DNA from: Patescibacteria group bacterium
Lineage (GTDB): Bacteria; Patescibacteriota; Patescibacteriia; UBA9934
Assembly (NCBI GenBank): GCA_041660165.1
Contig: JBAZWW010000003.1
Span: 68,352-132,351, forward strand
Length of the DNA: 64,000 bases
Direction: 5' to 3'
The translations under genes and the position numbers were made by a program. The notes under the pieces were generated by a model that was not told the origin of the DNA, made no database searches, and saw only the letters and a program-made list of their open reading frames with translations. Positions 29,095 through 64,000 of the stretch are shown here, piece after piece. The stretch's first letter is position 1; every line of letters begins with the position of its first letter.

Positions 29095-29095
29095 T

Positions 29096-29713: not shown

Positions 29714-29760
29714 TCCTGTGCTATACTTCTTTTAAGAAATTCACTATTTCTATTATTACT

Positions 29761-30171
29761 ATGGTGAAAGCAATCGTGCGGTTCGGGATGAGCGTTGCCT
29801 TGGGTCTGGCCATGTCACTCCCGTTTGTCCGCTTGGTTCCGTCTCTCATGCCGGTAGCCCACGCTCAACCGCTGGCTGCAGAAGACATTATCAATCCGCA
29901 GTTTGGCGACGCTACGGGTCTTGGCCAGGGAGATCTGAAACAGACCATTGGCAATTTGATCCGCGTGGCTCTTGGATTCCTGGGCGTGGTAGCAGTGGTC
30001 ATTGTTCTCTACGGTGGTTTCAAGTGGATGGTGGCCGGCGGTAATGATGAGAAGGTGGGCGAGGCTAAGAAGCTCATCATCTCCGGCATTATTGGTCTGG
30101 CTATCATTCTCTCAGCTTACGCCATCACCACGTTTGTCATCTCAAGCTTCATGACCGCCACCACAGCGTAG
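29761..30171 (+). CDS. TrbC/VirB2-like pilin-family protein (paralog 3)
   Basis: IGNLIRVALGFLGVVAVVIVLYGGFKWMVAGGNDEKVGEAKKLI...SAYAITTFV. Confidence 0.7.
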   Translation: MVKAIVRFGMSVALGLAMSLPFVRLVPSLMPVAHAQPLAAEDIINPQFGDATGLGQGDLKQTIGNLIRVALGFLGVVAVVIVLYGGFKWMVAGGNDEKVGEAKKLIISGIIGLAIILSAYAITTFVISSFMTATTA

Positions 30172-30225
30172 TTGTCTCCTATCGAACTCCGCATCTTTCT
30201 TCTGGAAAGGTGCGGAGACGATATG

Positions 30226-30639
30226 CGAAAACTGGCAGCCGCCGCCTTCCTGACCATGGCTTTTTTTGCACCGCTTCGTCAGTGCTTGGCCTTTAGCGTG
30301 AATGACACTGGTCTGGAAACAACGGCTTTTGCCGCTAAGTACAGTACAGGTGACAACGTAAAAAACATCGGTACATTCATTGGCTTTTATATTATTCAGC
30401 CGGTGCTAGGTATCTTGGGTCTCCTTTTCTTGGTTCTCATGATTTACGCCGGTGTTCTCTGGATGACCGCTTCCGGCAATGAAAAGCGTGTACAGAAAGC
30501 AAAAGACATTTTGATCGCTGCCGTTATTGGCGCCACCATTATTGTGGGTGCATACGCAATCACAAATGCCCTCTTTAGTGCACTTTCTTCGGGATCTATT
30601 ACCGGTGCGCCCGCCACTACCTCCACTCCAACGCCTTAA
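30226..30639 (+). CDS. TrbC/VirB2-like pilin-family protein (paralog 4; ORF opens at 30172)
   Basis: LMIYAGVLWMTASGNEKRVQKAKDILIAAVIGATIIVGAYAITNAL. Confidence 0.65.
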   Translation, partial: RKLAAAAFLTMAFFAPLRQCLAFSVNDTGLETTAFAAKYSTGDNVKNIGTFIGFYIIQPVLGILGLLFLVLMIYAGVLWMTASGNEKRVQKAKDILIAAVIGATIIVGAYAITNALFSALSSGSITGAPATTSTPTP

Positions 30640-30644
30640 ACTCT

Positions 30645-30986
30645 ATGCCTTTTACTACCGGGCTTTCTGACGCAGCTACGGGTAATTATTCCACCACGCA
30701 AACGCTTGGCCAGCTGATTGGCATGCTGATTAGCGCCGTGCTTGGCATCCTTGGTGTAATTTTGCTGGTTCTTGTGGTCTATGCCGGATTTCTTTGGATG
30801 ACCGCAGCCGGTGATGACAAGAAAATTAAGAAGGCTAAAGATATTCTTGCATCCGCGGTTGTGGGTATGATTATTGTGGTGGCCTCTTACTCTATTTCTA
30901 CGTTTGTTATTGGTGCTTTGCAGGGGACAACAAACGGAGCGAACAATACTTCTAATCAGAATATGGTGAATCAACAGCAACCGTAG
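30645..30986 (+). CDS. TrbC/VirB2-like pilin-family protein (paralog 5)
   Basis: LGQLIGMLISAVLGILGVILLVLVVYAGFLWMTAAGDDKKIKKAKDIL. Confidence 0.7.
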   Translation: MPFTTGLSDAATGNYSTTQTLGQLIGMLISAVLGILGVILLVLVVYAGFLWMTAAGDDKKIKKAKDILASAVVGMIIVVASYSISTFVIGALQGTTNGANNTSNQNMVNQQQP

Positions 30987-31036
30987 GCAGTTAGGTTTTT
31001 AATGGTGTATACTCTCAGTAAGAATTAATTATAACT

Positions 31037-31411
31037 ATGAACAAGCTCAAGCAATTGGTTATCGGTACCGCAATCGCTGTTATGCCTTTCAGCGCCGTGG
31101 CCCTTACGGTGCACGCCGCGGATCTCACTTCACAGTTGAGCGACGTAAACCAGACTGCAGGGTTTGGAACAAAGACCCCGCAGGAAACCATTGGTCAGCT
31201 TATCAGCGTATTCCTGGGCGTGCTTGGTATCGTCTTCTTGCTTCTCACTATTTACGCCGGTTTCCTCTGGATGACGGCGGCTGGTGATGACAAGAAAGTT
31301 GCTTCCGCCAAGAACATCCTTATCTCAGCGGTAGTTGGACTGGTGGTTATTCTCTCTGCTTACGCTATCAGCAGTTTCGTGATCCAACAGCTTCAGACAG
31401 CAACAACGTAA
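31037..31411 (+). CDS. TrbC/VirB2-like pilin-family protein (paralog 6)
   Basis: IGQLISVFLGVLGIVFLLLTIYAGFLWMTAAGDDKKVASAKNIL. Confidence 0.7.
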   Translation: MNKLKQLVIGTAIAVMPFSAVALTVHAADLTSQLSDVNQTAGFGTKTPQETIGQLISVFLGVLGIVFLLLTIYAGFLWMTAAGDDKKVASAKNILISAVVGLVVILSAYAISSFVIQQLQTATT

Positions 31412-31538: not shown

Positions 31539-32177
31539 TTAGAGGCAGGATTGCCCGAGAGTAATCCAGAAGTGGTTGCCCGGGGCCTTGGGCTCGTAGT
31601 GGAGGTCCATTGTGCCCGTCATGGGCTGGGGCCGGCACTGGCGTCCCTGCAGGAGGTCGAACACGAAGTTCGTGTCCGCATTGAGCGCCTTCATGGGCAT
31701 CTTGGTGCCCTCCACCCACAAGGCGTCCACGTTCCACGTGGCGGAGGTCTCATAGACCGTGCCCTTCACCACAACCCGTCCATCGGTGACGCCGAGTTTG
31801 ACCCAGGCGTCCCCGAAGGGGAGGCAGGGAGCAGGCTCGCCGTCCGCGTTGATCACGGTGACGGAGGCGTATACGCCGCTGCGCGGATCGAGCCCGATGA
31901 CCACCGGCAGTGCTCCGCCCGTGATGTCCGGGGTGGTGCACGTACCGCGGTTGGGGTTCGTCACCTTGATGAGGCTGGTCAGCTTGTCACAGCCGTCCGG
32001 CCAATCAAGGAGGTAGACGCCCTCTTCGATGTTGTTGTGACCGCCTTCGCACTGCGGTTTCTTGAACCGCAGGTCCGTGTGCAGGTCGCTTGACCCGCGG
32101 TAGACGGCCACTTCCTTCGCGATGGCGGACGTGGTGACGGCCAGAACGGCGGCGACGATTCCAATGTAGCGGAACAT
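31539..32177 (-). CDS. secreted Cys-containing hypothetical protein (within the GC-rich island)
   Basis: Signal peptide MFRYIGIVAAVLAVTTSAIA; high GC3; antisense ORFs judged spurious. Confidence 0.5.
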   Translation of the reverse strand: MFRYIGIVAAVLAVTTSAIAKEVAVYRGSSDLHTDLRFKKPQCEGGHNNIEEGVYLLDWPDGCDKLTSLIKVTNPNRGTCTTPDITGGALPVVIGLDPRSGVYASVTVINADGEPAPCLPFGDAWVKLGVTDGRVVVKGTVYETSATWNVDALWVEGTKMPMKALNADTNFVFDLLQGRQCRPQPMTGTMDLHYEPKAPGNHFWITLGQSCL

Positions 32178-32350
32178 GATGCCTCCAAGGGGTGCGGATT
32201 TCAGCGAGACATGACGGAGAGCTTATGGGCCTTCCGTCCTGTCTGCAGTAGATCCGGCCTCCCCTCAATGAAGAAGGGAGACACGGGAGCCTCGCGTGTG
32301 GGCTCATCGATGACGTACCGTAGGGACGAGGCTCGGCCTCGTCCTTGTCG

Positions 32351-33109
32351 TTACGGTTTTTCGGCCGGTGTGGGCGTGGCCAGGGTGGCCCCGATCTTGG
32401 CGGCGGCCGTCTGCACGTCCGCCACTGAGGACCCGAGGTCGGCCTGACCGAGCGCCTCTGCGTCGATCTTGGCCTGTTCCTCGGGCGTCACGGGTACGCC
32501 GTCGGGCTTGTCCGCTAGCGTGCCGGTGTCTGGGATGGTGCCGGTCTTGGGCGTACGGCCGTAGAGGTCTCCGCGGAAGTCTGCGATGACCCCGCTTCCG
32601 CCGTACCTGTAACCACCGGCGCCGAAGCTGGAACCACGGCCGTTGCTCGTGACCGCCGTCGCCAGCGCCACGTCCGTACCAACGGCGAACGTGTCGCCGC
32701 TGATGAACACGGGCCGGCCGGACGAGATCGCGCTCGTCACCGCCGAACTGCGCGTCTGCGCGTCCGTGAACGCGGGCAGGATCTGCACGCTGGCGATCGT
32801 GACGTTCGCGCTGGTCCGCGCGAGCTCCACGCGCTCGTCGCTCTGGATGCGGGCGAGGGCGATGGTCCGATCGGCGCACTGCGTGGCGAACTTGGTGCCG
32901 GCACGCGTGGTCGTGTGAGACGGCTCCAGCGTGACGCCGGCGCAGTCGCCGTAGAACGTCGCCCGGCCCACGTTCGGCCCGTTTTGCGGGTCGGCCGTGG
33001 TGGCGGTGCTGACCGGGCCCCAGTTCGGTGCCGGGGTGGCCGTGGCGTCCTGGGCCATGGCGGACCCGGAAGCCAGAGTGAAAAGAATCGAAACCAGATA
33101 CTTGCGCAT
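32351..33109 (-). CDS. secreted hypothetical protein (within the GC-rich island)
   Basis: Signal peptide MRKYLVSILFTLASGSAMA; Thr/Ala-rich; high GC3. Confidence 0.5.
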   Translation of the reverse strand: MRKYLVSILFTLASGSAMAQDATATPAPNWGPVSTATTADPQNGPNVGRATFYGDCAGVTLEPSHTTTRAGTKFATQCADRTIALARIQSDERVELARTSANVTIASVQILPAFTDAQTRSSAVTSAISSGRPVFISGDTFAVGTDVALATAVTSNGRGSSFGAGGYRYGGSGVIADFRGDLYGRTPKTGTIPDTGTLADKPDGVPVTPEEQAKIDAEALGQADLGSSVADVQTAAAKIGATLATPTPAEKP

Positions 33110-33243
33110 GTTTACCTCGCGCTTGGGTGGTCGGTCCTAGGCTCAGCAATCGGACAGTCCGACGGCTTTGCCCAGACCCTTTAGAATAGCAAAAAAATGG
33201 GTTTTTGTCAATGTTTCAAAGAGGGTGTTTCTTGGCTAATCTA

Positions 33244-33272
33244 TTGACATTTTTGAAAATTTGGGGTATTCT
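33244..33272 (+). promoter_or_regulatory. sigma70-like promoter (TTGACA-17-TATTCT) in the AT-rich divergent region
   Basis: TTGACA at 33244-33249 and TATTCT at 33267-33272; the only AT-rich stretch in the island. Confidence 0.45.
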
Positions 33273-33338
33273 CTTTTGTCTTCCTCCCCGTGCTTGCACA
33301 AGGAGGAATGACCGTCTTGGTTAGGAATACCGTTCAAC

Positions 33339-35129
33339 ATGGGGCAACGGCAAAGCCGATCCCCGGAGGAAATGATCATGCGTCGTACCCGAAATGCCGG
33401 TACCCCGGCTCTCACTCCCGGTCAGGAGCGTGCTTCTGACCTGTGGGATCGAATCGTTGATCTGCGGTTCCTCCCGGGCCGTACGATCCGCGGTCGCGCG
33501 CCGGTTCGCGGTCCGGAGATCGTGGATCGCCCGACAGAGATCCAGGTGCTCAACTGGATCATGCTCAACTGGCTCCCTGGCAATCAGGGGGTCTTGAGCC
33601 TGCTCCCGGACATGACGGTGCCGGATGCGGGAGTGGGGAATTTCGACGTGGATACTCTGTTCCGCGTGCGCGACCCTGATCCCGTTCCACCCGCCGTGGA
33701 CACTCGGCCCACCCCCGCAGAGCGCGAAGCCGCCACCCAGGCGATTTACGCACTGCTGGACGGTCCGTTTGCCCCGTTCGAGCAGGCACTCCGCGCAGGC
33801 GGAACCCCGGCCATCCCGTGGTGGCTTCGGCCCTGGTTCGAAGGTCTGGACTTCGTGGATGACCACCTGACTGTGGCCAGCCAGGCGTTCTTGCCCCAAT
33901 GGAGGCTGGTTCTCGGGGCTCTTCGCGGAGTGGGCGGATTCGCGGGCATGTTCACGCTCGGGTTCGTTGGAGCCACGCTGGCCGTTCTCTGTGCGGGGAT
34001 GCCGTTCGTGGCCTTCATCTTGTTCCTGGGCGTGCTCTTCCTCGGTCGGCGCGCTCTCGGCCGGATCTGGGGATGGATCACGGGCGCTGCGGATTGGATC
34101 GTGGAACAGCCGGCGCGTATCTGGAACGCCATGTTCCCCGCGCTCGTGACGTCCCTGACACCGCCTCCCAGGCCTCCGACCGACCCCAACTTCGTGGAGG
34201 GCGTGTCGGATCTGTCGCCCATCGAGCGTCGTGTCATCGGGCGTCGGAACGCATGGGGTGTGGTGGCTGCCGTTATCTTCGGCGGTATCCCGTTCGCCTA
34301 CGGCATCATCATGTCCACGATCGGCCTGTACCACATCTACGAGCCGATCGCGGCTGGTGCCGTGAACCCTGTGTTTGAAGGCCTTGGCAACGGGGCATTC
34401 AACCCGGCATCGTTCAACCTGAACTACTATATGTTCATGGTTGAAATCTCCCGGTACATCCTGATGATTACGGAAGTCATTACGATGAGTGCCTGGGGGG
34501 TTCCGCGTATCCGTGAGTTCGACAACAACCTCGCTGACGGCACCGTGGTGGCTCATCCGACGGATTTCCGTCGCTTGATCGAGCGGTTTGGTCTTCTCAT
34601 GGTGTGGTTCCGCCTGGGTGCGTCCGGTCGATTCCGTCCGCACTTCATCACGATCTGCATCATCGTCGACTCCATCGCTGTTCTGCTGAATGGGTACGTA
34701 TACCCTATTCATCACACGGCTCAGGGGTGGGCCTGGTCCTCGACGTTGTTGACTTGGTGGTTGATCCTCATCATTAACGTGGGCATTCGCTTCGGCGGGT
34801 GGTTCAACTTCAATGATCGGGAGAAGCTCGTCAAGTCGCTTACGGGGTACCTGTTCACTGGCCTGGGTGCTCCGCTCGCCGTCATGCTGGTCATGGGGTT
34901 CCTTCCCCCCCGGCACGGTGATGACGTGATGACGCTGGCGCAGACGGCCGGTGGCAACGCGATGGTTGCCGCTAGCAACTACGTGGGCCCGGCAAAGCTC
35001 GATCGCCCGCCCGTCCTTCCGCGCCCCGAGTGCGCGAATGCGAAGGCCAAGGTGGCCGTGCTCGAAGCCAAGATCCCTGGCATCTGCCTGCGGAACCCCG
35101 GAAAGGTTCCCTGTAGCTGCCCGAAGTAG
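33339..35129 (+). CDS. large polytopic membrane protein (at least 8 TM) of unknown function, high GC
   Basis: Multiple hydrophobic helices (e.g. FAGMFTLGFVGATLAVLCAGMPFVAFILFLGVLFLG, WAWSSTLLTWWLILIINVGI); the antisense 614-aa ORF is R/H/D-rich junk. Confidence 0.55.
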   Translation: MGQRQSRSPEEMIMRRTRNAGTPALTPGQERASDLWDRIVDLRFLPGRTIRGRAPVRGPEIVDRPTEIQVLNWIMLNWLPGNQGVLSLLPDMTVPDAGVGNFDVDTLFRVRDPDPVPPAVDTRPTPAEREAATQAIYALLDGPFAPFEQALRAGGTPAIPWWLRPWFEGLDFVDDHLTVASQAFLPQWRLVLGALRGVGGFAGMFTLGFVGATLAVLCAGMPFVAFILFLGVLFLGRRALGRIWGWITGAADWIVEQPARIWNAMFPALVTSLTPPPRPPTDPNFVEGVSDLSPIERRVIGRRNAWGVVAAVIFGGIPFAYGIIMSTIGLYHIYEPIAAGAVNPVFEGLGNGAFNPASFNLNYYMFMVEISRYILMITEVITMSAWGVPRIREFDNNLADGTVVAHPTDFRRLIERFGLLMVWFRLGASGRFRPHFITICIIVDSIAVLLNGYVYPIHHTAQGWAWSSTLLTWWLILIINVGIRFGGWFNFNDREKLVKSLTGYLFTGLGAPLAVMLVMGFLPPRHGDDVMTLAQTAGGNAMVAASNYVGPAKLDRPPVLPRPECANAKAKVAVLEAKIPGICLRNPGKVPCSCPK

Positions 35130-35226
35130 GTCCTGCCCGTAGGGGAAACGGGAAGGGCCTCGCAACGGCCGGATGACATGAGCAGAAATGCTTATGACAA
35201 CCGGTCGTTTTCTAATTTAGAGAGAG

Positions 35227-36822: not shown

Positions 36823-38031
36823 ATGCCGAAGTTCAAAGACTTTCTCATTCTTCTCTTGGCCGTTTTGCCAACTTATCTTTTGCGTTTTCATCTTGGGCCG
36901 GTGCCAACTACTGTGCTCGAAATATATATATTGTTGATTATTGGGTACTGGTTTATTTTTGAGCAGGGTTATCGGTTAGATTTCTTGCGAACAATGGGCG
37001 CGTACCGGGTGCCATTCCTACTTCTCCTCGCTACTTCATGTTTTGCCGTGGCCGTGGCGCCGGATCCGATCTCGGCACTCGGCACCTGGAAGGCATTTTA
37101 TGTCGAGCCGATTTTGTTGTTTTTCGTTTTTCGTTCAACGTTCCTCGCGCGCGAGGATTGGACGCTCGCCCTTGGCGCTCTTGGCATCTCGGTGATTTCT
37201 ATTTCGATCTTTGCCGTTTTCCAACGAGTGACGGGCCTCGGCATTCCGGTGCCATGGGATATCGAGCTTCGAGCAACCTCGATCTTTGATTTCCCGAACG
37301 CCGTTGGCTTATTTGTCGGTCCGGCGGTTGCCGTGTTTGTCGTGCTCGCTGTAGACAAGGCTCGAGCACTCCGGGAACGAGTATTTTTCGGCATCTCAGC
37401 CATGTTCGGTGTCATCGCGATTGTTCTCTCGCAAACCGAGGCGCTATTCATTGCCTTGCCGGTAGCGTTTCTGTTCTCGCTTTTGCTGTCGAGCGCCCCG
37501 AAGAAGCTCAAGCTCGGCATCATTGGCGCGAGCATTTTCCTTGGCGTCATCGCCTTTGCGGGCAGTTCGACCGTTCGTGAGAAGCTGCTGCTTGAAGACC
37601 TTTCCGGTCAGGTTCGCCGTTCACAGTGGACGGAAACACTCGCCCTTCTAAAAGATCATCCCATTTTTGGCGCTGGCCTCCAGGGCTATCCCGCTGTTTT
37701 TGCTAAGTACCATGACCCGCGTCTGTACGAAATCTTCCAGTACCCGCATAACATTTTGCTGAATTTTTGGGTTGAGCTTGGCTTCCTTGGCGTGATCACG
37801 CTCGTTGTTTTCATTCTTTCAGTTCTTCAGGTGACATATATGCGCCGGACAGACATTTTTAGCCTCGTAGCCTTTGCCGGACTCGCCACCATGTGTATCC
37901 ACGGTCTGGTTGATGTGCCATTTTTCAAGAATGATCTGGCGGTACTGACGGTGTTCTTGTTGGCCCTGAGCTCGACCTCCTCTGGCTCCTCCTTGGAAAG
38001 GAGGAGGATCACTTATGACCCTGATCTATAA
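36823..38031 (+). CDS. O-antigen ligase/polymerase-like (Wzy_C) membrane protein
   Basis: Multi-TM with a central periplasmic loop; motifs SQTEALFIALP and FGAGLQGY; the C-terminal tail SSLERRR is encoded by the hairpin at 37987-38007. Confidence 0.65.
   Translation: MPKFKDFLILLLAVLPTYLLRFHLGPVPTTVLEIYILLIIGYWFIFEQGYRLDFLRTMGAYRVPFLLLLATSCFAVAVAPDPISALGTWKAFYVEPILLFFVFRSTFLAREDWTLALGALGISVISISIFAVFQRVTGLGIPVPWDIELRATSIFDFPNAVGLFVGPAVAVFVVLAVDKARALRERVFFGISAMFGVIAIVLSQTEALFIALPVAFLFSLLLSSAPKKLKLGIIGASIFLGVIAFAGSSTVREKLLLEDLSGQVRRSQWTETLALLKDHPIFGAGLQGYPAVFAKYHDPRLYEIFQYPHNILLNFWVELGFLGVITLVVFILSVLQVTYMRRTDIFSLVAFAGLATMCIHGLVDVPFFKNDLAVLTVFLLALSSTSSGSSLERRRITYDPDL
37987..38007. repeat. palindromic hairpin CTCCTCC-TTGGAAA-GGAGGAG (family A variant, left flank of DUF559 gene 1)
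   Basis: Perfect 7-bp stem; loop identical to the 63561-63577 copy upstream of the second DUF559 gene. Confidence 0.6.
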
Positions 38032-38410
38032 CCCATCATGGAGCATTGAACGGAGAAAGGAGCTTCGGATGAGAGCAACATTCGCTGAAATTGTGCTTTG
38101 GAATCTTTTGAGAAATAGGCAACTCATGAATGTGAAGTTTCGTCGGCAGTATGGTGTAGACGGGTACATTGTCGATTTTTATGCTGCCCAATTGAAATTT
38201 GCAATTGAGCTTGATGGGGCCGTTCACGATACTGAAGAGGCAAGAAGATACGACCAAATTAGAGACGAGCACTTGAGGGGAATCGGCATCGAAATACTAC
38301 GATTACGAAACGAGGAGGTTGTACTGGGGCAGGAGTCAGCTCTCAAGCGAATCACTGAAGCGATGCGCTCTCGTCAGGCGCGTTACCCCTCCTTACCAAG
38401 GAGGGGATAG
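38015..38410 (+). CDS. DUF559 (Vsr/restriction-endonuclease-like) domain protein
   Basis: Aligns from Met1 with the second DUF559 protein at 63608 (M-T-x-I-x-N-x-x-W-S-(I/L)-E-R-R-(K/R)-(E/D)-L-R, FRRQYG, (I/L)-(I/V/T)-D-F-Y, ELDG); the C-terminal tail RYPSLPRRG is encoded by the hairpin at 38386-38406. Confidence 0.7.
   Translation: MTLIYNPSWSIERRKELRMRATFAEIVLWNLLRNRQLMNVKFRRQYGVDGYIVDFYAAQLKFAIELDGAVHDTEEARRYDQIRDEHLRGIGIEILRLRNEEVVLGQESALKRITEAMRSRQARYPSLPRRG
38386..38406. repeat. palindromic hairpin CCCCTCC-TTACCAA-GGAGGGG (family A variant, right flank of DUF559 gene 1)
   Basis: Perfect 7-bp stem; loop in inverted orientation relative to the left-flank copy. Confidence 0.6.
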
Positions 38411-38433: not shown

Positions 38434-40320
38434 ATGCTCCCTCTTCTCAAACGCGCCTTTTCAGGTTTTCTTTTGCTGGTCACGCTCCTTCTTGGCGTCC
38501 CTTTTACGGCTTTTGCCTCGAGTATTCCTTATTCAGCTCTACGCATAACCACCACCGGCGGGGGGAATATCACTTTGGCGCCGGGGGAGGTGAAGAATAT
38601 TGCCGTTTCTTTTCAAAACAAGGGTTCGCAGACGTGGAAAAATGATGGCAACGGCTACATTTCGCTTTATACCTACGGCCCAAAGTACCGGGCGAGTGTT
38701 TTTGACCCAGGTACCTGGCTCACGCCCTCGCAGGTGAAGCGGATGGGGGAGGAAGGCGTGAAGCCCGGCGCCACGGGCACATTTTTGTTCAGCTTGAAAG
38801 CGCCAAAGACCCTTGGCACATACAAAGAAACTTTCGCCCTGGCGTCTGAGAATATCAATTGGGTTACGGGAGGTGACTTCACTTTGAATATCACCGTGCA
38901 AGCGTCGAGTACTGCCAATGCGCCAGCTGTAGACCCCCGCCCGGACGATCCGGTCGGACGGGCTTCCTCACGTCAGGGTCTGGTTCCCGTTTCCACCGTC
39001 GCTCCCGATGCCTCTATTGGCTACTCAGCCAGTCTGGTCACCCAAACCGCTTCCAAAATGAAGGTCCTGGCTAAGAAAACAATCTCATTTTCGGCCGTTA
39101 TTCAGAACACGGGAACAAAGACATGGAAGAACATTGGGCTCTCGTCTTCAGCCATGAACATTGCTTCTGGGTCGAGTGATTTTAGGAACAGCACATGGTC
39201 TGGCAATCAGGTTGCCCTCCTCTCGCAAACAGTGAAGCCTGGCGCTACGGCCACGGTTCAGTTTTTCTTCACCTCGCCCAGCGTCAACGGAACACATACC
39301 GCGAAGTTTCAGATTACTGCAGACGGCATCAGTATTCCTGACAGCTTCGTGACCATTCCCGTTGAAGTAACCGGCGGATCGGCTGAAGCACTCGACGCCC
39401 CATTAGAAAGCGGGGTTTCCAACCCCTCCTCCGTGCCGGCCGCACTGATAACTGAACCAACTATCCGCGTGGGCGTGTTGATTGTGGACGAGGAGACAAA
39501 AGACGAGGCGGTCATCACCTCATTTGAAAGCGATTTTGATTTAATTGATACAGATGGCACGATCCTTGGTTCTTATCCAAGAGGGAAAGAGATCCGGACG
39601 GCATGGGATGGAGCGAATTATCTCTATAACGACGGTGCACACAAAAAGTCCTCGAAACCGCTCCGTTTCGTTCCAAAGACGCCAAACGCAGTCATGACCA
39701 TTACAAATTTTGATCGTCGGCTCACTCGCGGAACCTCGTTCGCAAACAACACTTTTAGAAACGTACTCGAACTCCGCTACAACACGCCGAATAATCGCAC
39801 TTGGGTTATAAATGAACTCCCGCTCGAATATTATTTACGAGGATTGGCTGAAACGTCTGATTCCTCGCCCGTTGAATTTCAGAAAGCGTTGTTAACCGCG
39901 GCCAGGACATACGCTTTTTATCACTGGACGCACAGCACTAAGCACAGAGCCGAAGGATTCCACGTAGACGCTTACCAAGACCAGGTGTACTGGGGCTATG
40001 ACCAGGAGGCCAGGACTCCGCGTATTACCGGAGGCGTGCAGGCCACGCGCGGTCAGATTGTCACGTACAACGGTGATACCGCCGTCACCTCATTCTTTTC
40101 TCGCTCGGATGGCAGAACTCGCAACTGGTCAGAAGTTTGGGGCGGAAACGTTCCGTATGCCAAATCCGTCCCCGTGCCGTGTGACGTTGGCAAGACTTTG
40201 TGGGGCCACGGCGTAGGCATGTCCGCTTCCGGCGCTCTCTGCATGGCCAAAGACGGTCAGGATTGGCAATCCATTCTCAAATATTTCTACACCGGCGTTG
40301 ATATTTCACAACGCTGGTAA
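38434..40320 (+). CDS. SpoIID/LytB-domain cell-wall protein with N-terminal Ig-like repeats
   Basis: Signal peptide; two TWKN-containing Ig-like repeats; C-terminal SpoIID/LytB-like region (NELPLEYYLRG...YWGYDQE...LWGHGVGMS). Confidence 0.7.
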   Translation: MLPLLKRAFSGFLLLVTLLLGVPFTAFASSIPYSALRITTTGGGNITLAPGEVKNIAVSFQNKGSQTWKNDGNGYISLYTYGPKYRASVFDPGTWLTPSQVKRMGEEGVKPGATGTFLFSLKAPKTLGTYKETFALASENINWVTGGDFTLNITVQASSTANAPAVDPRPDDPVGRASSRQGLVPVSTVAPDASIGYSASLVTQTASKMKVLAKKTISFSAVIQNTGTKTWKNIGLSSSAMNIASGSSDFRNSTWSGNQVALLSQTVKPGATATVQFFFTSPSVNGTHTAKFQITADGISIPDSFVTIPVEVTGGSAEALDAPLESGVSNPSSVPAALITEPTIRVGVLIVDEETKDEAVITSFESDFDLIDTDGTILGSYPRGKEIRTAWDGANYLYNDGAHKKSSKPLRFVPKTPNAVMTITNFDRRLTRGTSFANNTFRNVLELRYNTPNNRTWVINELPLEYYLRGLAETSDSSPVEFQKALLTAARTYAFYHWTHSTKHRAEGFHVDAYQDQVYWGYDQEARTPRITGGVQATRGQIVTYNGDTAVTSFFSRSDGRTRNWSEVWGGNVPYAKSVPVPCDVGKTLWGHGVGMSASGALCMAKDGQDWQSILKYFYTGVDISQRW

Positions 40321-45669: not shown

Positions 45670-46553
45670 AAAAAACTACGCCAAAGAAGATTGTCATCAT
45701 TGGGGGAGGAACTGGCACGGCCACCGTCCTCAAAGGACTGCGCCAGTATCCGCTTGAGCTTTCAGCCGTGGTTTCAATGGCTGATGACGGCGGTTCGACG
45801 GGAATCCTTCGGCGCGAGCTTGGCATTTTACCGGTTGGGGATATTCGCCAATGCCTGCTCGCGCTTTCAGACGCCGAGGATTCCGTGAAGGAACTATTCG
45901 GTTATCGCTTCGCCGAGGGGAGTCTCTCAGGACACAGCGCGGGCAATCTTCTCCTCGCCGCGCTCGTGAAATCTACGGGGGATTTCGAGGAAGCATTGGC
46001 CGTTGCCTCGAGAATGCTCGACATAAAGGGCGAAGTCATTCCCGTAACGCTCGATTTGACCACGCTCGGCGTTATTCATGGGAGTGATCGAGTGAAAGTG
46101 ATGGGCGAGCATGTGATTGATGACGGACTCGTGCTCAACCAACCGCGAGAATTCTTCCTTGAGCCCCGCGCGCAGATCAGCAGTCGAGCTCGAACCGCCA
46201 TCCTCGACGCCGATGTGATCGTGATCGGCCCCGGCTCGCTCGCCACCTCGCTCATACCAGCACTCATTGTAGAGGGAGTGCGCAAGGCGATTGGCGAGTC
46301 TAAGGCGAAGATCATCTATAACGTAAACCTCGCCCCAACGCCGGGGCAGACGGAGGGGTTCTCGGTAGCCGATTACGTGAAAGAGATCGAGTCATACTTG
46401 CCCCGCAAGATAGATTTTGTGACGAGCGGGGACGCGCTCAGGGATCCCTCGAAAGTAGAGAAAAAGGCTGGCGATCTCCTTGTCAGAAGCAGTGTTCGGC
46501 ATAATCCGGAGGCGCTTGGCCGGGTCATTATGGAATATATTGAGGCGCTATGA
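45666..46553 (+). CDS. YvcK/CofD-like (UPF0052, gluconeogenesis-factor family) protein
   Basis: KIVIIGGGTG...MADDGGSTG signature. Confidence 0.8.
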   Translation: MKKTTPKKIVIIGGGTGTATVLKGLRQYPLELSAVVSMADDGGSTGILRRELGILPVGDIRQCLLALSDAEDSVKELFGYRFAEGSLSGHSAGNLLLAALVKSTGDFEEALAVASRMLDIKGEVIPVTLDLTTLGVIHGSDRVKVMGEHVIDDGLVLNQPREFFLEPRAQISSRARTAILDADVIVIGPGSLATSLIPALIVEGVRKAIGESKAKIIYNVNLAPTPGQTEGFSVADYVKEIESYLPRKIDFVTSGDALRDPSKVEKKAGDLLVRSSVRHNPEALGRVIMEYIEAL

Positions 46554-47698
46554 AGATTTTTATTGATTTTGACCACACGCTAACCCGGGGCCGGGAGTTT
46601 GGGGATGCCATTTTGGGCGAACTGGGCGGGGAGTCAGCGGAAATTTTGCGCACCGCGCTTCGGGATTTTAGGCAAACGCATGATTTTACGTTGGAAGCCG
46701 TTTCTCAGCTCTTTGAACAGTTCGGCTTTCCGCCTGAGCGAACGATCAGTATGTATGAAGCGTATGCCAAGCGGATGGAGGAGTTTTTGGCGCCAGATGC
46801 CCATGAATTTCTGTCCGCTTTGAAGGCATTGGGCCACGAGCTGATACTCCTCACGCGTTCTCCTGACGTGGAAACATGGCAACGGCCAAAGGTGCTGGCG
46901 TCAGGGCTGAGTGAATATTTTACTGGCATTGAGATTACGAGCGGAGCAAAAGTGGACGTGATAGAGATGCTCGGCCACCAAGAGCCGTTTATATTTATTG
47001 ATGATCTCCCAAAGGAAACGGAAGAAATGCAAGCACGTTTTCCGGTGGCGCTTTGTATTACGCATGAAAAAGGCGCCCCGCTCATGGAGCATCTTTTCAC
47101 TATTGCCGGTTTTGCTAATCGTGACGAGCTAAAAACGCTTCCGTTGCCGATTAATACCGCGATCAACATCGGAAATCTTTCACTCGAGGACGGCGAACAG
47201 CTGGCCGTAACGTTTGGCCTCGACAAAAAAGCAGTCGACGCTTTCAAAAAGCGTTCGTGTGATGAAACGGATGAAGAGCTCATGCGTTTTACGAGTGATC
47301 ACGAGCGGATTTGCCTTGGTTCGTATGAAACTTGGTATGCCAAGGAGCGCTACCCGTTTGGCCTCATGAGCAAGTCCGGCGAACTGGCCGGCATTGCCTG
47401 GTTTGGCCCAAAGGCGTTTCCCTCGATTGAAAAAGCGGGGTTTCAAACCCCGCCCATGACCGCGAACGCCGAGTGGCATACCTTTGCTGTCCGCATGTAT
47501 AACCCGTATCGCGGAAAACGGCTGGCTTTCCCCTTTGCTTCCTTTGTTTTTAAGGCTTACAATACCTTTCTTCCTCCGCATCCGCTTTGGCTTGATACAA
47601 GTCCGGAAAACGCTGGCGCCATTCGGTTATACTCAAAGCTAGGATTCATCGAGCATGGACATCGAGAGGATGGCCGAGTAGTCATGATCCGCCCGTAA
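46550..47698 (+). CDS. HAD-like hydrolase fused to a GNAT acetyltransferase
   Basis: N-terminal DxD motif FIDFDHTL; C-terminal GNAT-like region; contains in-frame palindrome B at 47435-47453. Confidence 0.55.
   Translation: MKIFIDFDHTLTRGREFGDAILGELGGESAEILRTALRDFRQTHDFTLEAVSQLFEQFGFPPERTISMYEAYAKRMEEFLAPDAHEFLSALKALGHELILLTRSPDVETWQRPKVLASGLSEYFTGIEITSGAKVDVIEMLGHQEPFIFIDDLPKETEEMQARFPVALCITHEKGAPLMEHLFTIAGFANRDELKTLPLPINTAINIGNLSLEDGEQLAVTFGLDKKAVDAFKKRSCDETDEELMRFTSDHERICLGSYETWYAKERYPFGLMSKSGELAGIAWFGPKAFPSIEKAGFQTPPMTANAEWHTFAVRMYNPYRGKRLAFPFASFVFKAYNTFLPPHPLWLDTSPENAGAIRLYSKLGFIEHGHREDGRVVMIRP
47435..47453. repeat. palindromic hairpin GCGGGGTT-tca-AACCCCGC (family B, copy 1, in-frame in the HAD-GNAT gene)
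   Basis: Perfect 8-bp stem; encodes KAGFQTPP. Confidence 0.6.
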
Positions 47699-47700
47699 CT

Positions 47701-48981
47701 ATGCCTCGCGTTAAACTGACCGAATTTCGGGCGAAGAAGCTCATCCTCGGCAACACCTACGCCGGTGTTTCTTTTTGTGGTGTGGTGCGTTCTCCCTCTT
47801 TCCAAGAGGGCGTCAGTACGGGTGGGCGTTCCCCCTCTTTCCAAGAGGGTGTCAGGACGGATGGGCGCTCCCCCTCTTTCCAAGAGGGGGCTACGGGGGA
47901 GTCGGTGGTGCGTTGGGTGGTCAAAGTCGATCAAGGTATCAAAAAGCGCTTCAAGCAAGGCCTCGTCAAAGTGAATATCTCGGCGGACGAGATTTTGAGC
48001 GCTGTCGAGCCTTGGAAGGCAAAGGGCTTCTCGCAATTCATTGCCGAGCCGTTTGTCGAGCACTCGGCGAACGAGGAACAGTATCTTTCGCTTGAGCGCG
48101 TGCGTGAGGGGGTTCGCATTTTGCATACCGCCGAGGGCGGAGTTGATATTGAGGCGCATCCGGAAGCTGTCCGATCATATGTCGTCGAAAATGCGGGCGA
48201 GATTTCATTGATCGCTAAAGAGACGAAGATTCCGCAGGCATTCCTTGAACAGTTAATTTCAACTTTTAACGATAAGATGTTTGCATTTCTTGAGATCAAT
48301 CCGCTTGTGATCAAGGGTGATCGAGTCTATTTGCTCGACGCTGCCGTGCTCGTGGACAGCGCAGGAATCTTCTTTGTGCACGGCGCGTGGACGGCGAGTG
48401 ATCTTGTTCTGCCCACCGCCAAGCATCCGGCTGAAGCGCGGGTCGAGGAATTAGCGAAAACCACTCCCGCCTCGCTCAAATTGTCCGTGCTGAATCCTGA
48501 CGGAGCATTGTTTTTCTTGTTGTCTGGCGGTGGGGGATCAATCGTGATCGCAGATACCGTCATGAACAAAAGCGGGGTTTCAAACCCCGCCCACGGCGCG
48601 GGCCAACTGATCGGCAACTACGGCGAGTACAGCGGAGGGCCCACGCGCGAAGAGACGTTTTTGTACACTCGCGAGGTACTCGGTTTGTTGCTCGGATCGA
48701 GCGCGCCGAAGAAGGCGCTCATAATTGCCGGGGGAGTGGCAAACTTTACGGATGTGAAGCGGACGTTTGCAGGCATCATTGACGCGTTGACCGAGCGCTC
48801 AGCCGAACTCCGTAAGCAGGGCGTTAAGGTGTTTGTGCGCCGGGGCGGACCGAATGAACAGGCGGGACTGGCCATGATGCGTGAGTTCCTGACCGCCGAG
48901 GGATTGCTCGGTGCCGTTTATGGATCAGAGGCGGTGATGACTAAGGCGGTAGAAGACGCCATAGCTTTTGTAAAAGTATGA
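47701..48981 (+). CDS. ATP-grasp subunit resembling ATP-citrate lyase beta / succinyl-CoA synthetase beta (AclB-like)
   Basis: ATP-grasp plus CoA-ligase fold; near the N-terminus carries three tandem 13-aa in-frame repeats (SPSFQEGxxTxGR) from element A, and a family B hairpin at 48572-48590. Confidence 0.65.
   Translation: MPRVKLTEFRAKKLILGNTYAGVSFCGVVRSPSFQEGVSTGGRSPSFQEGVRTDGRSPSFQEGATGESVVRWVVKVDQGIKKRFKQGLVKVNISADEILSAVEPWKAKGFSQFIAEPFVEHSANEEQYLSLERVREGVRILHTAEGGVDIEAHPEAVRSYVVENAGEISLIAKETKIPQAFLEQLISTFNDKMFAFLEINPLVIKGDRVYLLDAAVLVDSAGIFFVHGAWTASDLVLPTAKHPAEARVEELAKTTPASLKLSVLNPDGALFFLLSGGGGSIVIADTVMNKSGVSNPAHGAGQLIGNYGEYSGGPTREETFLYTREVLGLLLGSSAPKKALIIAGGVANFTDVKRTFAGIIDALTERSAELRKQGVKVFVRRGGPNEQAGLAMMREFLTAEGLLGAVYGSEAVMTKAVEDAIAFVKV
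47784..47903. repeat. three tandem 39-bp copies of palindromic element A (GGTGCGTT-CCCCCTCTTTCCAAGAGGGGG-CTACGGGGGAGTC)
   Basis: Direct reading of the sequence; in-frame within the AclB-like CDS. Confidence 0.85.
48572..48590. repeat. palindromic hairpin GCGGGGTT-tca-AACCCCGC (family B, copy 2, in-frame in the AclB-like gene)
   Basis: Identical 19-mer, read in a different frame (KSGVSNPAHG). Confidence 0.6.
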
Positions 48982-50874: not shown

Positions 50875-51942
50875 TTAGCGCGAGATCTCGAGAATCCCCG
50901 TTGGCACCCCGAGCGTCTCAAGCATTTGCTTCGCCTTCTCCTCGCTGGCCGGCATCATTTGGCGTTTTTGGAGGTAGAGCGGTTCGAATTTGAGCGTCAG
51001 TTTGTCAGCCTCGACGGTTAAGCGGACAGCCAGCCCGCTTTTTGTAGCTTCCGAGAAATCTTGATCGAACAAGAAATTGCCGAGCGAATAGACGATCGGG
51101 ACATTTTTGTATGTTTCGACGGTTTCAATGACATGCGGATGTCCGCCAATGACGGCGTCTGCGCCAGCGTCAACAAATTGATGCCCCGCAAAGATCTGTG
51201 AGCTGGACGGATTGTGCTGATACTCCACGCCCCAGTGAGGCATAACGATCACGAAATTGCCGGCGGATTTTTCAAGTTTGATGGCCTCGACAATGCCAGC
51301 GGTTGTTTCGTTAAAAGCGTGGTAGCCAATAAAGGCAAAAGTTATTCCGTTCACGGTTTTGTGGGCTACAAACTTTCCGCCTTCCCACGCATCGCCAAAC
51401 GGAGTCATGCCGGCGTTCGTGATTGTTGTCCTGGTGAGCTCCGCGGTTGCCCGGCCATAATCATCAGCATGATTGTTCGACAATGAAAGCAAGTCGAATC
51501 CTTGGGTGGCGAGCATTGAAACATTGCCGGGCGTGGTGTCAAAGTTCATGACGTTTGTTCCTTCGATGTTTTCTTTTTCGCGTACTGTTCCCTCAAAATT
51601 ACCGATAAGCAGGTCACTATTTGAAAGCAAATCTCCAACCTTCGCAAACGGATATTCGGTGCCGTAAAGTTTTATGTATTGCTCCACGTTTCTTGCGAGC
51701 ATAATGTCGCCCACGAATTCAAGAGTCGTGCTCGAGTCGTTCGGTGAGGGCACGATATCCGCCGTAGGGGTCGATCCATGTATCGACCCCGCAGTGACGA
51801 TGCGATCTCCCGCCATGGTCAGATGCGCCCTTCGAGAGATTTCGATGGACGAATTTGCTTTAGAAAACGGCGATACCACAAGAAATCCGATGAGAACGGT
51901 GAGTCCAAGCGCGGTTAACAGTATGGCGAGTTTTGGGGTCAT
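50875..51942 (-). CDS. CapA/PGA_cap-family metallophosphatase-like protein
   Basis: N-terminal TM; motifs FVGDIM, NFEG, NNHADDYG, GGHPHV; carries in-frame element C at 51767-51790. Confidence 0.7.
   Translation of the reverse strand: MTPKLAILLTALGLTVLIGFLVVSPFSKANSSIEISRRAHLTMAGDRIVTAGSIHGSTPTADIVPSPNDSSTTLEFVGDIMLARNVEQYIKLYGTEYPFAKVGDLLSNSDLLIGNFEGTVREKENIEGTNVMNFDTTPGNVSMLATQGFDLLSLSNNHADDYGRATAELTRTTITNAGMTPFGDAWEGGKFVAHKTVNGITFAFIGYHAFNETTAGIVEAIKLEKSAGNFVIVMPHWGVEYQHNPSSSQIFAGHQFVDAGADAVIGGHPHVIETVETYKNVPIVYSLGNFLFDQDFSEATKSGLAVRLTVEADKLTLKFEPLYLQKRQMMPASEEKAKQMLETLGVPTGILEISR
51767..51790. repeat. palindromic hairpin GGGGTCGAT-ccatgt-ATCGACCCC (family C, copy 1)
   Basis: Perfect 9-bp stem; encodes GSIHGSTPTA on the minus strand. 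Confidence 0.7.
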
Positions 51943-53410: not shown

Positions 53411-55261
53411 TTACGTAACGAACGGTAACGTGATCCCCTTAGCCTTGGCCAACCAATAGCCAAGCGCCCCCAAACTGGTAGTGAGTAACCCGCCTCCCAC
53501 CCACGGAATTTGTTTCGTGGGCGGGGGAGCGATGAGATTGTGATTCCTCTCCCCGCTAGGGGAGGAAGTAGGTAGGGGGGTTGTCATATCTGCCGTAGGG
53601 GTCGATCCATGTATCGACCCCGTAAGCACGCTCATCCCCTTCGTCTCCGTTATGGCGAGCGTCCACGCTCCGCTCTTCACTCGCGCCACGCCCGTCACTG
53701 CAATACGGTCGCCGAAGGCCAGGTCAGCAAAGTTGATGGCCACATGCGGAGCAGATGCTATGGCAAGGGTGTCGCCATTTTCGAGTTCCACCGTTACTCC
53801 GCCTTTGGCCATGTCCGTGACCGAGCCTTCCAGACTGAAGTATCCGCCTTGGACAGCTTCGTCGAGTGAGTTAAGCGAGTCTGGCGCCAGCGCGTCCTGG
53901 CCGGTTGTTTTAATGTCCAACCGTTTGCTTATCTTGAGACGCACATAGCCGTCTTTTTGTTGAACCACGCCGGTAACCTGCACGTGTGCCATGTATTTCA
54001 GCTTTGGCCAGTCGGCTTTGTTGAAATACACTTCAAGTCCATTTAGATACATCAGCTGTTTGCCGAATACTCCCGGCAGGCCAACCACTACGCCATCAAC
54101 GGTCACAATTTCTCCATCCGGGACATCGCCGAGTTCTGAGACGTCGAGTACCGTCAGGGTGGTTCCTCTCCCCGTGAGGGGAGAGGCTAGGTGAGGGGTA
54201 GCGGTGGCCGGGGGCAGGGGGGAGGCTACGCTGTCCGCCACCGTTGTTGCGAGCTCCAGCCGAACAGGGCTTGGGGCGGGGGCATCAGGGTTAGTTCCTT
54301 GAGCTTGGTCTTGAACGGCCGGATCAGGGTTGATAACGGCAGGAGTGTTGATTGTCGTCTCATATGTTGTATTCGTTGTGTCGTAGGGGTCGATCCATGT
54401 ATCGACCCTCGTATTAATGGCGAGCGGAGTGGGATCAGATTCAATCCACGTTCCGTCGGGTTGTTTAGCGAGTGATTTTCCTTTTTTCGGCGCCGTTTTG
54501 CCGGTGTACGATATCGCGTCAATCGTTGCTCCGGTTCCATCGAACAGGAAGATTGAGTCGCCATCGTTATTGAGTTTGCCCTTCGGGTTTTGTAGGACAA
54601 AGAAGGCGTGCGCCGGCAGAATCTGATCGGGCAACGGAGTTTTACTTGTCGTCGCATCTTTAACCGTCCACCCGCCGAGAGAGATTTCGTCTTCGGTTGT
54701 GTTGAGAAGCTCAATCCATTCCACACCATCGGCCGGATCAGATACGAATTCATTGATGAGGACGGAGCCAGTGGGATACGGGATTGGCCCGGGTGCCACG
54801 GGCGGTACCACGGGCGCGGTTGATGGCGCGGGCGTTAGGGTGGTCAATGGGGGTGCCGTAGGGGTCGATCCATGTATCGACCCCGCCTCGGTAGGCGTGA
54901 TGATCGGCGCGGGCGCCTCAATCGGCAATGGCTCGATGACCGTGATTGGCGCAACGGGTTCTGGTTCAGGTTCCGGTGCAACTGGTTCCGGTGCCGGCAA
55001 TGGGGCCGTCTGCACCGGACACAGCAGGCACGGATCCCCGGCGTCATCCCCTCCTTGTGAGGGAGGCTCGCCCGTAGGTTGCGAAGTTACGCCCGAGGAG
55101 GGCAGAGGGATGGAGGGGGCCAAGGGGGTGGCTACGTCTCCACCGGTCCCAGCGCTTTCGACGGTTTCGACGATCGCGGTTTCGGATGCGTCTTCTGCTC
55201 TCGCGGGTAGAGGAGACACAAAGGGCAAGAGGGTGAGGATTCCCAAGAGTCCATAGTACAT
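53411..55261 (-). CDS. secreted lamin-tail-domain (LTD) protein, Pro/Thr-rich, with a C-terminal membrane anchor
   Basis: LTD pattern VLINEFVSDPADGVEWIELLNTTEDEISLGGWTVKD...LNNDGDSIFLFD; signal peptide; C-terminal TM; contains three family C and two family D hairpin elements in-frame. Confidence 0.65.
   Translation of the reverse strand: MYYGLLGILTLLPFVSPLPARAEDASETAIVETVESAGTGGDVATPLAPSIPLPSSGVTSQPTGEPPSQGGDDAGDPCLLCPVQTAPLPAPEPVAPEPEPEPVAPITVIEPLPIEAPAPIITPTEAGSIHGSTPTAPPLTTLTPAPSTAPVVPPVAPGPIPYPTGSVLINEFVSDPADGVEWIELLNTTEDEISLGGWTVKDATTSKTPLPDQILPAHAFFVLQNPKGKLNNDGDSIFLFDGTGATIDAISYTGKTAPKKGKSLAKQPDGTWIESDPTPLAINTRVDTWIDPYDTTNTTYETTINTPAVINPDPAVQDQAQGTNPDAPAPSPVRLELATTVADSVASPLPPATATPHLASPLTGRGTTLTVLDVSELGDVPDGEIVTVDGVVVGLPGVFGKQLMYLNGLEVYFNKADWPKLKYMAHVQVTGVVQQKDGYVRLKISKRLDIKTTGQDALAPDSLNSLDEAVQGGYFSLEGSVTDMAKGGVTVELENGDTLAIASAPHVAINFADLAFGDRIAVTGVARVKSGAWTLAITETKGMSVLTGSIHGSTPTADMTTPLPTSSPSGERNHNLIAPPPTKQIPWVGGGLLTTSLGALGYWLAKAKGITLPFVT
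53544..53566. repeat. palindromic hairpin TTCCTCTCCCC-gct-AGGGGAGGAA (family D, copy 1)
   Basis: Near-perfect stem; encodes PSGERN in the LTD protein. Confidence 0.55.
53598..53621. repeat. family C hairpin, copy 2
   Basis: GGGGTCGATCCATGTATCGACCCC, identical to copy 1. Confidence 0.7.
54165..54186. repeat. palindromic hairpin CCTCTCCCC-gtg-AGGGGAGAGG (family D, copy 2)
   Basis: Perfect 9-bp stem; encodes ASPLTGRG in the LTD protein. Confidence 0.6.
54386..54408. repeat. family C hairpin, copy 3
   Basis: GGGGTCGATCCATGTATCGACCC. Confidence 0.7.
54861..54884. repeat. family C hairpin, copy 4
   Basis: GGGGTCGATCCATGTATCGACCCC. Confidence 0.7.
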
Positions 55262-63545: not shown

Positions 63546-63604
63546 GACTCCCCCGTAGCCCCCTCTTGGAAAGAGGGGGAGCGCACACCCTGACAGCACG
63601 CACC
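63546..63604. repeat. palindromic element A (inverted orientation, left flank of DUF559 gene 2)
   Basis: GACTCCCCCGTAGCCCCCTCTTGGAAAGAGGGGGAGCGCACACC..GCACGCACC is the reverse complement of element A. Confidence 0.8.
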
Positions 63605-63607
63605 ACT

Positions 63608-64000
63608 ATGACGGAAATATTCAACCAAAAATGGAGCCTGGAGAGGCGCAGAGATTTACGAAATGGAATGACCAAACCGGAGATCTTGCTGTGGTTAGCT
63701 ATCAAGGCAGATCAACTTGGCGTTCGTTTTAGAAGGCAGTACGGAATTGGTCGGTACATAACCGATTTTTATGTCCCGCGATTACGACTCGTGGTTGAAT
63801 TGGACGGCTCGCAGCATTACACCCCGGAAGGTAGGCGATATGATGAGATTCGAACCAAATCTTTCGAAAGCATCGGCATCCAGGTCATCCGTTTCGCAAA
63901 CGACGAAGTTTGCAGAAATCTGCACGGCGTTCTTCAGCGTCTCCGCATTGCGATAGCGGACCGTCAGAATGGTCAGGTGCGTTCCCCCTCTTTCCAAGAG
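63608..64000 (+). CDS. DUF559 (Vsr/restriction-endonuclease-like) domain protein, 3'-truncated by the window end
   Basis: ATG at 63608; MTEIFNQKWSLERRRDLR...FRRQYGIGRYITDFY...VVELDG, homologous to the protein at 38015; the ORF continues into element A (…QNGQVRSPSFQE). Confidence 0.6.
   Translation, partial: MTEIFNQKWSLERRRDLRNGMTKPEILLWLAIKADQLGVRFRRQYGIGRYITDFYVPRLRLVVELDGSQHYTPEGRRYDEIRTKSFESIGIQVIRFANDEVCRNLHGVLQRLRIAIADRQNGQVRSPSFQE
63976..64000. repeat. palindromic element A (forward orientation, right flank of DUF559 gene 2; truncated by the window end)
   Basis: GGTGCGTTCCCCCTCTTTCCAAGAG. Confidence 0.8.

Follow-up and report, generated by a model that had tools for sequence, protein, structure and literature searches.

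Very short palindromic repeats within protein-coding genes of a Patescibacteria genome and its relatives

A palindrome repeated inside three genes

We analysed a 64-kb stretch of a Patescibacteria contig (JBAZWW010000003.1), hereafter called the window, in which a short palindrome, family B, recurs inside protein-coding genes. The family B core, GCGGGGTTTCAAACCCCGC, is found exactly at 47435-47453 and at 48572-48590, both on the + strand, as an earlier note made from the sequence alone had reported. The two copies are in fact identical across 26 nt (AAAAGCGGGGTTTCAAACCCCGCCCA, at 47431-47456 and 48568-48593). The first lies in the gene of a HAD-like hydrolase of 382 aa (46550-47698, + strand), whose C-terminal half is weakly acetyltransferase-like. 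This gene had been labelled HAD-GNAT; the GNAT half of the label calls for caution, as it goes undetected by Pfam in the window protein and is only faint in the homologues. The second copy lies in the gene of a protein resembling the beta subunit of ATP-citrate lyase (AclB-like; 47701-48981, + strand), which has 426 aa versus about 383 aa in the orthologs. A third copy, degenerate with two mismatches (GCGGGGTTTCCAACCCCTC, 39410-39428, + strand), is placed in the inter-domain linker of a 628-aa SpoIID/LytB-domain protein that also carries an Ig-like domain (38434-40320, + strand). All three copies sit within intact open reading frames (ORFs). The homologues of the host proteins come nearly all from Patescibacteria, specifically from metagenome-assembled genomes (MAGs) of the Kaiserbacteria/Paceibacterota type, and the coding fraction is about 88% on a crude ORF map. 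The HAD-like (P0121) and SpoIID-like proteins have 100% matches in a Patescibacteria MAG, and the retrieved part of its contig equals the window sequence.

At the DNA level the core is a perfect palindrome (9+1+9), and its RNA folds into a stem of 8 bp with a loop of 3 nt (-13.9 kcal/mol), in agreement with the stems described before. When up to three mismatches are allowed, the core gives 6 strand-matches at 3 sites of the window, against 0.03 expected from dinucleotide shuffles, and none of 100 such shuffles equals the observed count. The window as a whole is rich in such structures, with 15 perfect hairpins having stems of at least 9 bp, compared with 2.4 +/- 1.6 in the shuffles. They group into at least three families: A (CCCCCTCTTTCCAAGAGGGGG), B, and C (GGGGTCGATCCATGTATCGACCCC). 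Within the window, the copies of each family share a single orientation relative to the host gene, which for family B we attribute to the avoidance of stop codons; read directly, the core is free of stops in five of the six frames. Above the Rfam gathering thresholds the window matches only four tRNAs, all away from the element, and a tRNA or Rfam origin of family B was accordingly rejected. Viral contigs gave no family B matches.

The three ORFs read through the element. The HAD-like ORF reads ..IEKAGFQTPPM.. at this position, with K-A-G-F-Q-T-P-P encoded by the palindrome. The AclB-like ORF reads ..MNKSGVSNPAHG.., where the element forms a 24-nt (8-codon) insertion, KSGVSNPA, after the residues GGGGSIVIAD. 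The SpoIID-like ORF reads ESGVSNPSS, of which E-S-G-V-S-N-P-S corresponds to the decayed copy. The peptides previously given for the two exact copies, KAGFQTPP and KSGVSNPA(HG), are thus right. The copy in the SpoIID-like ORF is in the same frame as the AclB-like copy, and the one in the HAD-like ORF is one frame off. Reading in different frames, as had been claimed, is therefore true of the two exact copies but fails as a rule, since one frame (G-V-S/L-N-P, hereafter GVSNP) dominates the family.

Presence and absence among orthologs

The ortholog alignments show that family B was gained in a lineage-specific manner in its host genes. Among 22 AclB-like sequences, the 8 extra residues right after the invariant GGGGSIVIAD occur only in the window protein and in its closest relative (P0001, on contig L122; 89% amino acid identity over aligned positions). 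They are missing from the next relative (P0002, on L120) and from 19 others, and human ACLY also lacks the 8-residue insert. The gain corresponds to 24 nt at the DNA level. In the SpoIID-like gene, two of the 24 sequences contain ESGVSNP(S/T)SVP, those of the window and of its closest relative (P0130/L224), within a hypervariable linker that has a net gain of 4 residues. The distribution at the HAD-like site departs from the tree. Family B is present in the window; in the closest relative (L122) its place is taken by an unrelated sequence with 4 residues fewer. In L120 and L121, which are more distant, the same codon holds the stem with another loop (GCGGGGTTATCAACCCCGC), and distant orthologs have no element. 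This pattern of presence and absence among orthologs implies that family B is not a conserved protein motif.

The net length changes differ between genes: 8 codons were gained in the AclB-like gene, 4 in the HAD-like gene and 4 in the SpoIID-like gene. These unequal gains suggest that the element partly overwrote resident codons, as in a conversion rather than a simple insertion. The family B copies are located in loops or linkers. An AlphaFold (AF2) model built from the 22-sequence alignment places the AclB-like insert, together with a triple array of family A described below, in coil with a predicted local distance difference test score (pLDDT) under 50. Confidence is also low over residues 277-298, including conserved ones, and because these adjacent conserved residues share the low scores the model supports a surface loop only weakly. 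Besides this insert, five AclB orthologs (P0007, P0017, P0020, P0034, and P0073) have extra C-terminal tails of the PAPLE(R/H)S type (columns 501-520 of alignment A1) that the others lack; these tails may be palindromes overlapping the 3' end of the gene.

Copies in relatives and their probable translation

We used AARGCGGGGTTNNNAACCCCGC as the query of a metagenome scan. Its matches included many generic terminators from unrelated bacteria, of the widespread type AAAGCGGGGTT..AACCCCGCTTT, and a coherent subset of contigs of about 52% GC in which the element lies within long ORFs. These related contigs hold more than 10 family B copies, in addition to the 3 of the 64-kb window, and thus extend to unrelated genes what had been noticed in two neighbouring ones. 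An SMC gene of L128, like its L176 ortholog, has two copies; a membrane protein (L137/L154) has another two, and an acidic protein has two and a variant (L167). L173 and L159 hold others, and the AclB-like copy recurs in L153. The similar flank SVPA had made L154 a candidate SpoIID ortholog, which was rejected because the gene encodes an unrelated membrane protein. Independent assemblies (L119, L225, L122, and L153) recover the same copies. Families A and C are present on the same related contigs, which indicates that the three families travel together in the clade.

In these relatives the full palindrome reaches 21-25 nt, with the consensus AAGGCGGGGTTT-N-AAACCCCGCCTT and a stem of 10-12 bp. 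It is flanked by AAR on the 5' side and by C or CC on the 3' side. Among the relatives compared, no conserved sequence extends past about 25 nt, unlike family A, whose unit is of about 42 nt. At L137 9354-9388, a family B copy shares its end with a second palindrome of another kind (CCGCCCTTTGAAAGGGCGG), so palindromes can nest or abut.

Family B copies are often paired, in the same gene or in adjacent ones, at distances of 0.1-1.6 kb. This is the case in the window (47435/48572), in L128 (4519/5503), L167 (2568/4164), L137 (9369/9453), and L173 (1025/1325). The pairing suggests local spread, though its excess over expectation seems modest.

Family B appears to be translated. At least 10 of the approximately 13 independent copies are in the GVSNP frame and usually encode (E/K)-G/S-G-V-S-N-P-A, mostly GGVSNPA. 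Every copy in this frame has C or T as its centre base on the coding strand; a G would produce TGA and an A would produce TAA. The copy in L159, whose flanks imply the opposite orientation of the element, also fits the C/T pattern. It is the frame bias, together with the stop-free centre base, that points to translation and to a selection filter. Unrelated host genes use identical codons at the element, without synonymous variation. The different frames of the two exact copies had been taken as a sign of a selfish DNA or RNA-structure element rather than of a protein motif, and the lineage-specific gains and the codon identity across unrelated genes bear this out.

Families A and C, DUF559 cassettes, and turnover

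The AclB-like gene carries a second set of palindromes in the variable loop near its N-terminus. There, family A occurs three times in tandem, as CCCCCTCTTTCCAAGAGGGGG and two close variants (47792-47890, + strand); each palindrome is read as SPSFQEG, and together they form an array of three 39-nt units at 47770-47905. Logan contig L119, assembled independently from short reads of the same organism, stops within these repeats, its positions 4092-4145 corresponding to about 47794-47847 of the window; palindromic repeats thus break assemblies. The N-terminal loop is a hot spot of fast turnover. Where the window has three units of family A, L122 has the family C peptide GVDPCIDP (around 620-660), and L120 (2207-2229) and L121 (11231-11253) have other perfect palindromes. 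Copies are quickly gained, replaced, and lost at permissive sites, and their arms stay complementary while they are present.

Family C (GGGGTCGATCCATGTATCGACCCC) has four copies in the window, at 51767-51790, 53598-53621, 54386-54409, and 54861-54884, inside genes of the - strand with PGA_cap and LTD domains. Three of them read GSIHGSTP and one is in another frame. Variants of the family in L128 differ at the ninth pair of the stem, with compensation (T-A, A-T, or G-C).

Family A is also associated with genes of DUF559, a Vsr-like nuclease domain. The first such ORF (38015-38410, + strand; cassette 1) is accompanied by palindromes resembling those of family A at 37986-38006 and 38386-38406. 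At this position L121 has no cassette, and L224 has a truncated one with other perfect palindromes on its sides. The second DUF559 gene starts at 63668 and continues beyond the end of the window (locus 63559-64000, + strand). Inverted family A units lie on both sides of it (63559-63579, and the window-equivalent positions 63984-64004). These units, of about 42 nt (GTGCGYTCCCCCTCTTTCCAAGAGGGGGCTACGGGGGAGTC), are identical to one another at 41 of 42 positions. They match the solo in-frame units of the AclB-like gene and units found upstream of SMC in the relatives L128 and L176. In all, the DUF559 loci are 37986-38410 and 63559-64000 of the window (the latter continuing in L225, 12778-13276), L224 857-1398, and L054 7258-7945. 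A DUF559 homologue of Poribacteria has a similar palindrome-bracketed layout. DUF559 may therefore provide a lead to a copying enzyme, for family A only; in the loci examined we found no DUF559-like partner for family B, and in the literature we found no report linking DUF559 to repeats.

A probable dispersed palindrome copied in whole codons

We give a probability of about 60% to the reading that family B resembles repetitive extragenic palindromes (REPs), being a dispersed palindrome that spreads by hairpin-dependent copy-and-paste and is confined to loops, where only in-frame and stop-free copies are kept. A very short, GC-rich, perfect palindrome would be copied around the genomes of one Patescibacteria clade, and because about 88% of these genomes is coding, the copies would land in genes. 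Survival would require a length gain in multiples of three nucleotides, freedom from stop codons, and a tolerant loop or linker as the site, and the surviving copies would then be translated into a small polar, turn-like peptide. The element itself would be essentially selfish or neutral DNA, like REPs. We infer that it moves by a conversion-type copy-over, and not by cut-and-paste with target duplication, and that the palindrome is itself required for copying. One possible route is template switching guided by hairpins or microhomology; alternatively, a nuclease-induced break may be repaired using another copy as the template.

Several observations weigh against this reading. We found no transposase, no REP-associated tyrosine transposase (RAYT), and no other obvious mobilising gene in the window or in the 7.7 kb beyond it; Pfam scans of all 55 ORFs of the window revealed no Y1 transposase, and the 7.7-kb extension contains no further family B copy. 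The density of the family is low, at 3 copies in 64 kb. No direct repeat lies beside the insertion in the AclB-like gene when it is compared with the empty site of L120, which is 71% identical and whose flanks are themselves altered (EAAL to TVMN), so that a target-site duplication is undefinable there. The bias towards the GVSNP frame could in principle reflect selection on the peptide. Finally, the element is more conserved than the genes around it. The AclB-like genes of the window and L122 have 82.8% nucleotide identity (64% at third positions), yet family B is identical at 26 of 26 positions. The HAD-like genes of the window and L120 have 63.5% identity, yet 16 of 16 stem positions agree, and those of L120 and L121 have 74.7% identity, yet the element matches at 24 of 24. 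The stems of these two genes are thus conserved beyond neutral drift, which may reflect selection acting on the hairpin; repeated conversion or re-insertion would also account for it.

The main rival reading, which we consider rather unlikely, is that selection maintains the hairpin inside genes as a nucleic-acid structure with a function. It might act as an intrinsic terminator of antisense transcription, in mRNA processing or stability, as a pause for translation or transcription, or, as has been suggested for REPs, in the binding of a DNA-structure protein. The conservation of the AclB-like and HAD-like stems beyond gene-wide divergence fits such a role, as does the stability of the fold (-13.9 kcal/mol). 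The palindromes around the DUF559 cassette also differ in sequence at orthologous positions and remain perfect. On the antisense strand, the window copies consist of the hairpin followed by TTTT(T), and two of the three are terminator-like by scan; however, copies of the relatives lack the antisense T-run, being flanked by AAGGCGGGG, and all copies are inside ORFs. Two variants of the family show a compensated stem change (GCGAGG..CCTCGC), against one ortholog with an uncompensated change, and the covariation over 14 copies amounts to a single covarying pair; this evidence is suggestive but weak. The copies have no consistent position relative to gene starts, gene ends, or domain borders, and close relatives differ in their presence within conserved enzymes. 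The copy in SpoIID has decayed in both of the lineages that carry it, as is expected of neutral DNA. Quasi-palindrome mutagenesis is an established process, and templated correction from one arm to the other would preserve perfect palindromes without any function.

The palindromes could instead be solo, non-autonomous ends of DUF559-nuclease cassettes, with break repair copying the palindromic end and family B having its own partner elsewhere, an explanation that we hold to be quite improbable. It accounts for the inverted palindromes that bracket both DUF559 genes of the window, for the match between the approximately 42-nt family A ends of the second cassette and the solo units in the AclB-like gene and upstream of SMC in L128/L176, for the absence of cassette 1 from L121 and its truncated state in L224, and for the same bracketed layout in Poribacteria. 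However, the association is seen for family A only: no gene is bracketed by family B in the loci examined, and family B has no conserved sequence beyond about 25 nt. Palindromes beside small genes could also be terminators or hairpins at ribosome-binding sites, and AAGGAGG occurs within the arms of cassette 1. The number of cassettes examined is three, and the activity of the nuclease on such DNA is a prediction. In its broadest form, all three families may be non-autonomous ends of undescribed selfish DUF559 cassettes of Patescibacteria and Poribacteria, a 'REPtron' built on a different enzyme, whose solo ends would spread by break-induced copying in whole codons. We regard this broader proposal as unlikely; if it were true, the ends of DUF559 cassettes would continually reshape conserved enzymes of ultra-small bacteria at their surface loops.

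The remaining explanations are very improbable. A conserved or convergent protein motif (e.g., a short linear motif GGVSNPA) with incidental palindromy has in its favour a dominant frame and a loop-friendly peptide, but it is effectively refuted by the different frames of the two exact copies of the window and by the identical codons, without synonymous variation, in unrelated genes; nearly all orthologs lack the motif, and there is no protein-level reason for a perfect symmetry of 9-10 bp. Chance had been offered for the case of just two copies whose residues orthologs share, and it disagrees with the further copies, with the orthologs, and with the expectation of 0.03 matches, as an assembly artefact disagrees with the recovery of the same copies in the independent assemblies. 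Patescibacteria depend on DNA uptake, and the uptake sequences of other bacteria occur in tolerant coding frames, but these sequences are found roughly once per kb, compared with about 1 per 20 kb and three coexisting families here; the lack of matches in viral contigs also counts against these three explanations.

Comparison with known repeats

In favouring a REP-like dispersed palindrome, we place family B among the known short repeats by what it shares with each and where it differs. Mitochondrial GC clusters and hairpin elements, as well as the MJRE of Methanocaldococcus jannaschii, are short GC-rich palindromes that spread in compact genomes and occasionally lie within coding regions, which they leave intact. 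Some of the mitochondrial elements are bypassed in translation. These elements have other hosts and other sequences, and the frame bias and stop avoidance of family B indicate normal translation. DNA uptake sequences (uptake signal sequence [USS] and DNA uptake sequence [DUS] types) consist of one motif, about once per kb in both orientations, unlike the 3 copies per 64 kb of family B and the three unrelated families of the window.

The REPs and the bacterial interspersed mosaic elements (BIMEs) resemble family B in being dispersed GC-rich stem-loops of 20-40 nt with several families per genome, and the DUF559 cassettes between inverted family A units recall REPtrons. Yet REPs are overwhelmingly extragenic, whereas all family B copies on Patescibacteria-like contigs are intragenic. 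Intragenic REPs are known in several species, and the amino acids they encode have been catalogued (PMC3733652). [quoted passage not shown] The partner of REPs is the RAYT, a tyrosine transposase of the IS200/IS605 type (IS, insertion sequence); none was found in the window, and a PD-(D/E)XK nuclease is instead the candidate partner, of family A alone.

There is also a likeness with the palindromic elements of Rickettsia (RPEs), which are inserted in frame in unrelated functional genes and add a peptide compatible with the fold (PMC10969869, PMC3733652). As with the families studied here, each genome holds several RPE families and is reduced, leaving little space between genes (PMC10969869, PMC3733652), and the ortholog comparison shows that family B, like the RPEs, was inserted in frame into functional ORFs. 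However, RPEs are about 100-150 bp long, encode a conserved peptide of 30-50 aa, have a CGTC end, and occur in Alphaproteobacteria, while family B, a repeat of Patescibacteria, has 19-25 nt and 8 codons and lacks CGTC and GTAG. The two have no similarity in sequence. Bacterial MITEs (miniature transposable elements with inverted repeats), such as the QMITEs of Coxiella, the enterobacterial repetitive intergenic consensus (ERIC), and the Correia elements, are also non-autonomous repeats that can fuse in frame with ORFs (PMC10969869; PMC5896051). MITEs differ from family B in their size (70-300 bp), their terminal inverted repeats of 15-30 bp, their target-site duplications, and their derivation from IS; family B is a single minimal hairpin of at most 25 nt. 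Since family B lacks the extragenic location and tag of REPs, the length of RPEs, and the terminal repeats and target duplication of MITEs, it is best filed within the in-frame palindromic-repeat kind. What is distinct is its size of only 8 codons, the lack of GTAG/CGTC, the fact that it was found only inside genes, and its host, Patescibacteria with no RAYT in view. We found nothing in the literature on in-frame palindromes in Patescibacteria, or in the candidate phyla radiation (CPR) under that name.

The core of family B also occurs in other phyla. Poribacteria MAGs, from sponge symbionts, account for more than 100 copies of GCGGGGTTTCAAACCCCGC among the matches listed (L001-L118, which include others). 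There, the core is part of a longer palindrome, CTGCAG-GCGGGGTTTCAAACCCCGC-CTGCAG, within a larger repeat with flanks that are unrelated to the Patescibacteria ones. This repeat is mostly extragenic: among the matches listed, 14% fall within open frames 450 nt or longer, versus 82% of random positions. In Saprospiraceae the same core is flanked by ACGTCG/CGACGT, a REP type tagged with CGTC. The sharing of the core between Poribacteria and family B is probably a convergence on a common stem of the terminator type. A scan of reference genomes for the 19-mer was rejected as a count of Patescibacteria copies because its matches are dominated by the distinct repeat of Poribacteria.

Implications and other features of the window

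Patescibacteria have tiny, gene-dense genomes that are thought to be poor in repeats, and here at least three families of ultra-short palindromes lie inside conserved genes. The host genes include those of the ATP-citrate-lyase-like protein, SMC, SpoIID, and Ddl, and the turnover is visible between relatives that are still 83-89% identical. The palindromes are thus a source of variation in protein loops and of differences in length between orthologs. They also explain a practical nuisance for assembly and annotation, as contigs break at the repeats. They offer a tractable case for the copying of minimal hairpin repeats, with DUF559 as a candidate enzyme for one of the families. If they were instead maintained for a function, they would represent a rare selected nucleic-acid structure embedded in the coding sequence of many genes.

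The window has other unusual features. An ORF of 2,696 aa at 3243-11333 has no Pfam match. A paralogous cluster of five consecutive small genes, each with a T4SS_pilin domain, lies at 28516-31411. It is followed by a GC-rich island (32001-35165) with a GC content of 0.64, against about 0.51 elsewhere, and a strongly negative AT skew. The long ORFs on the - strand of the island (32304-33149 and 33321-35165) have no Pfam matches, and the island contains two singleton perfect palindromes, at 32052 and 32324.

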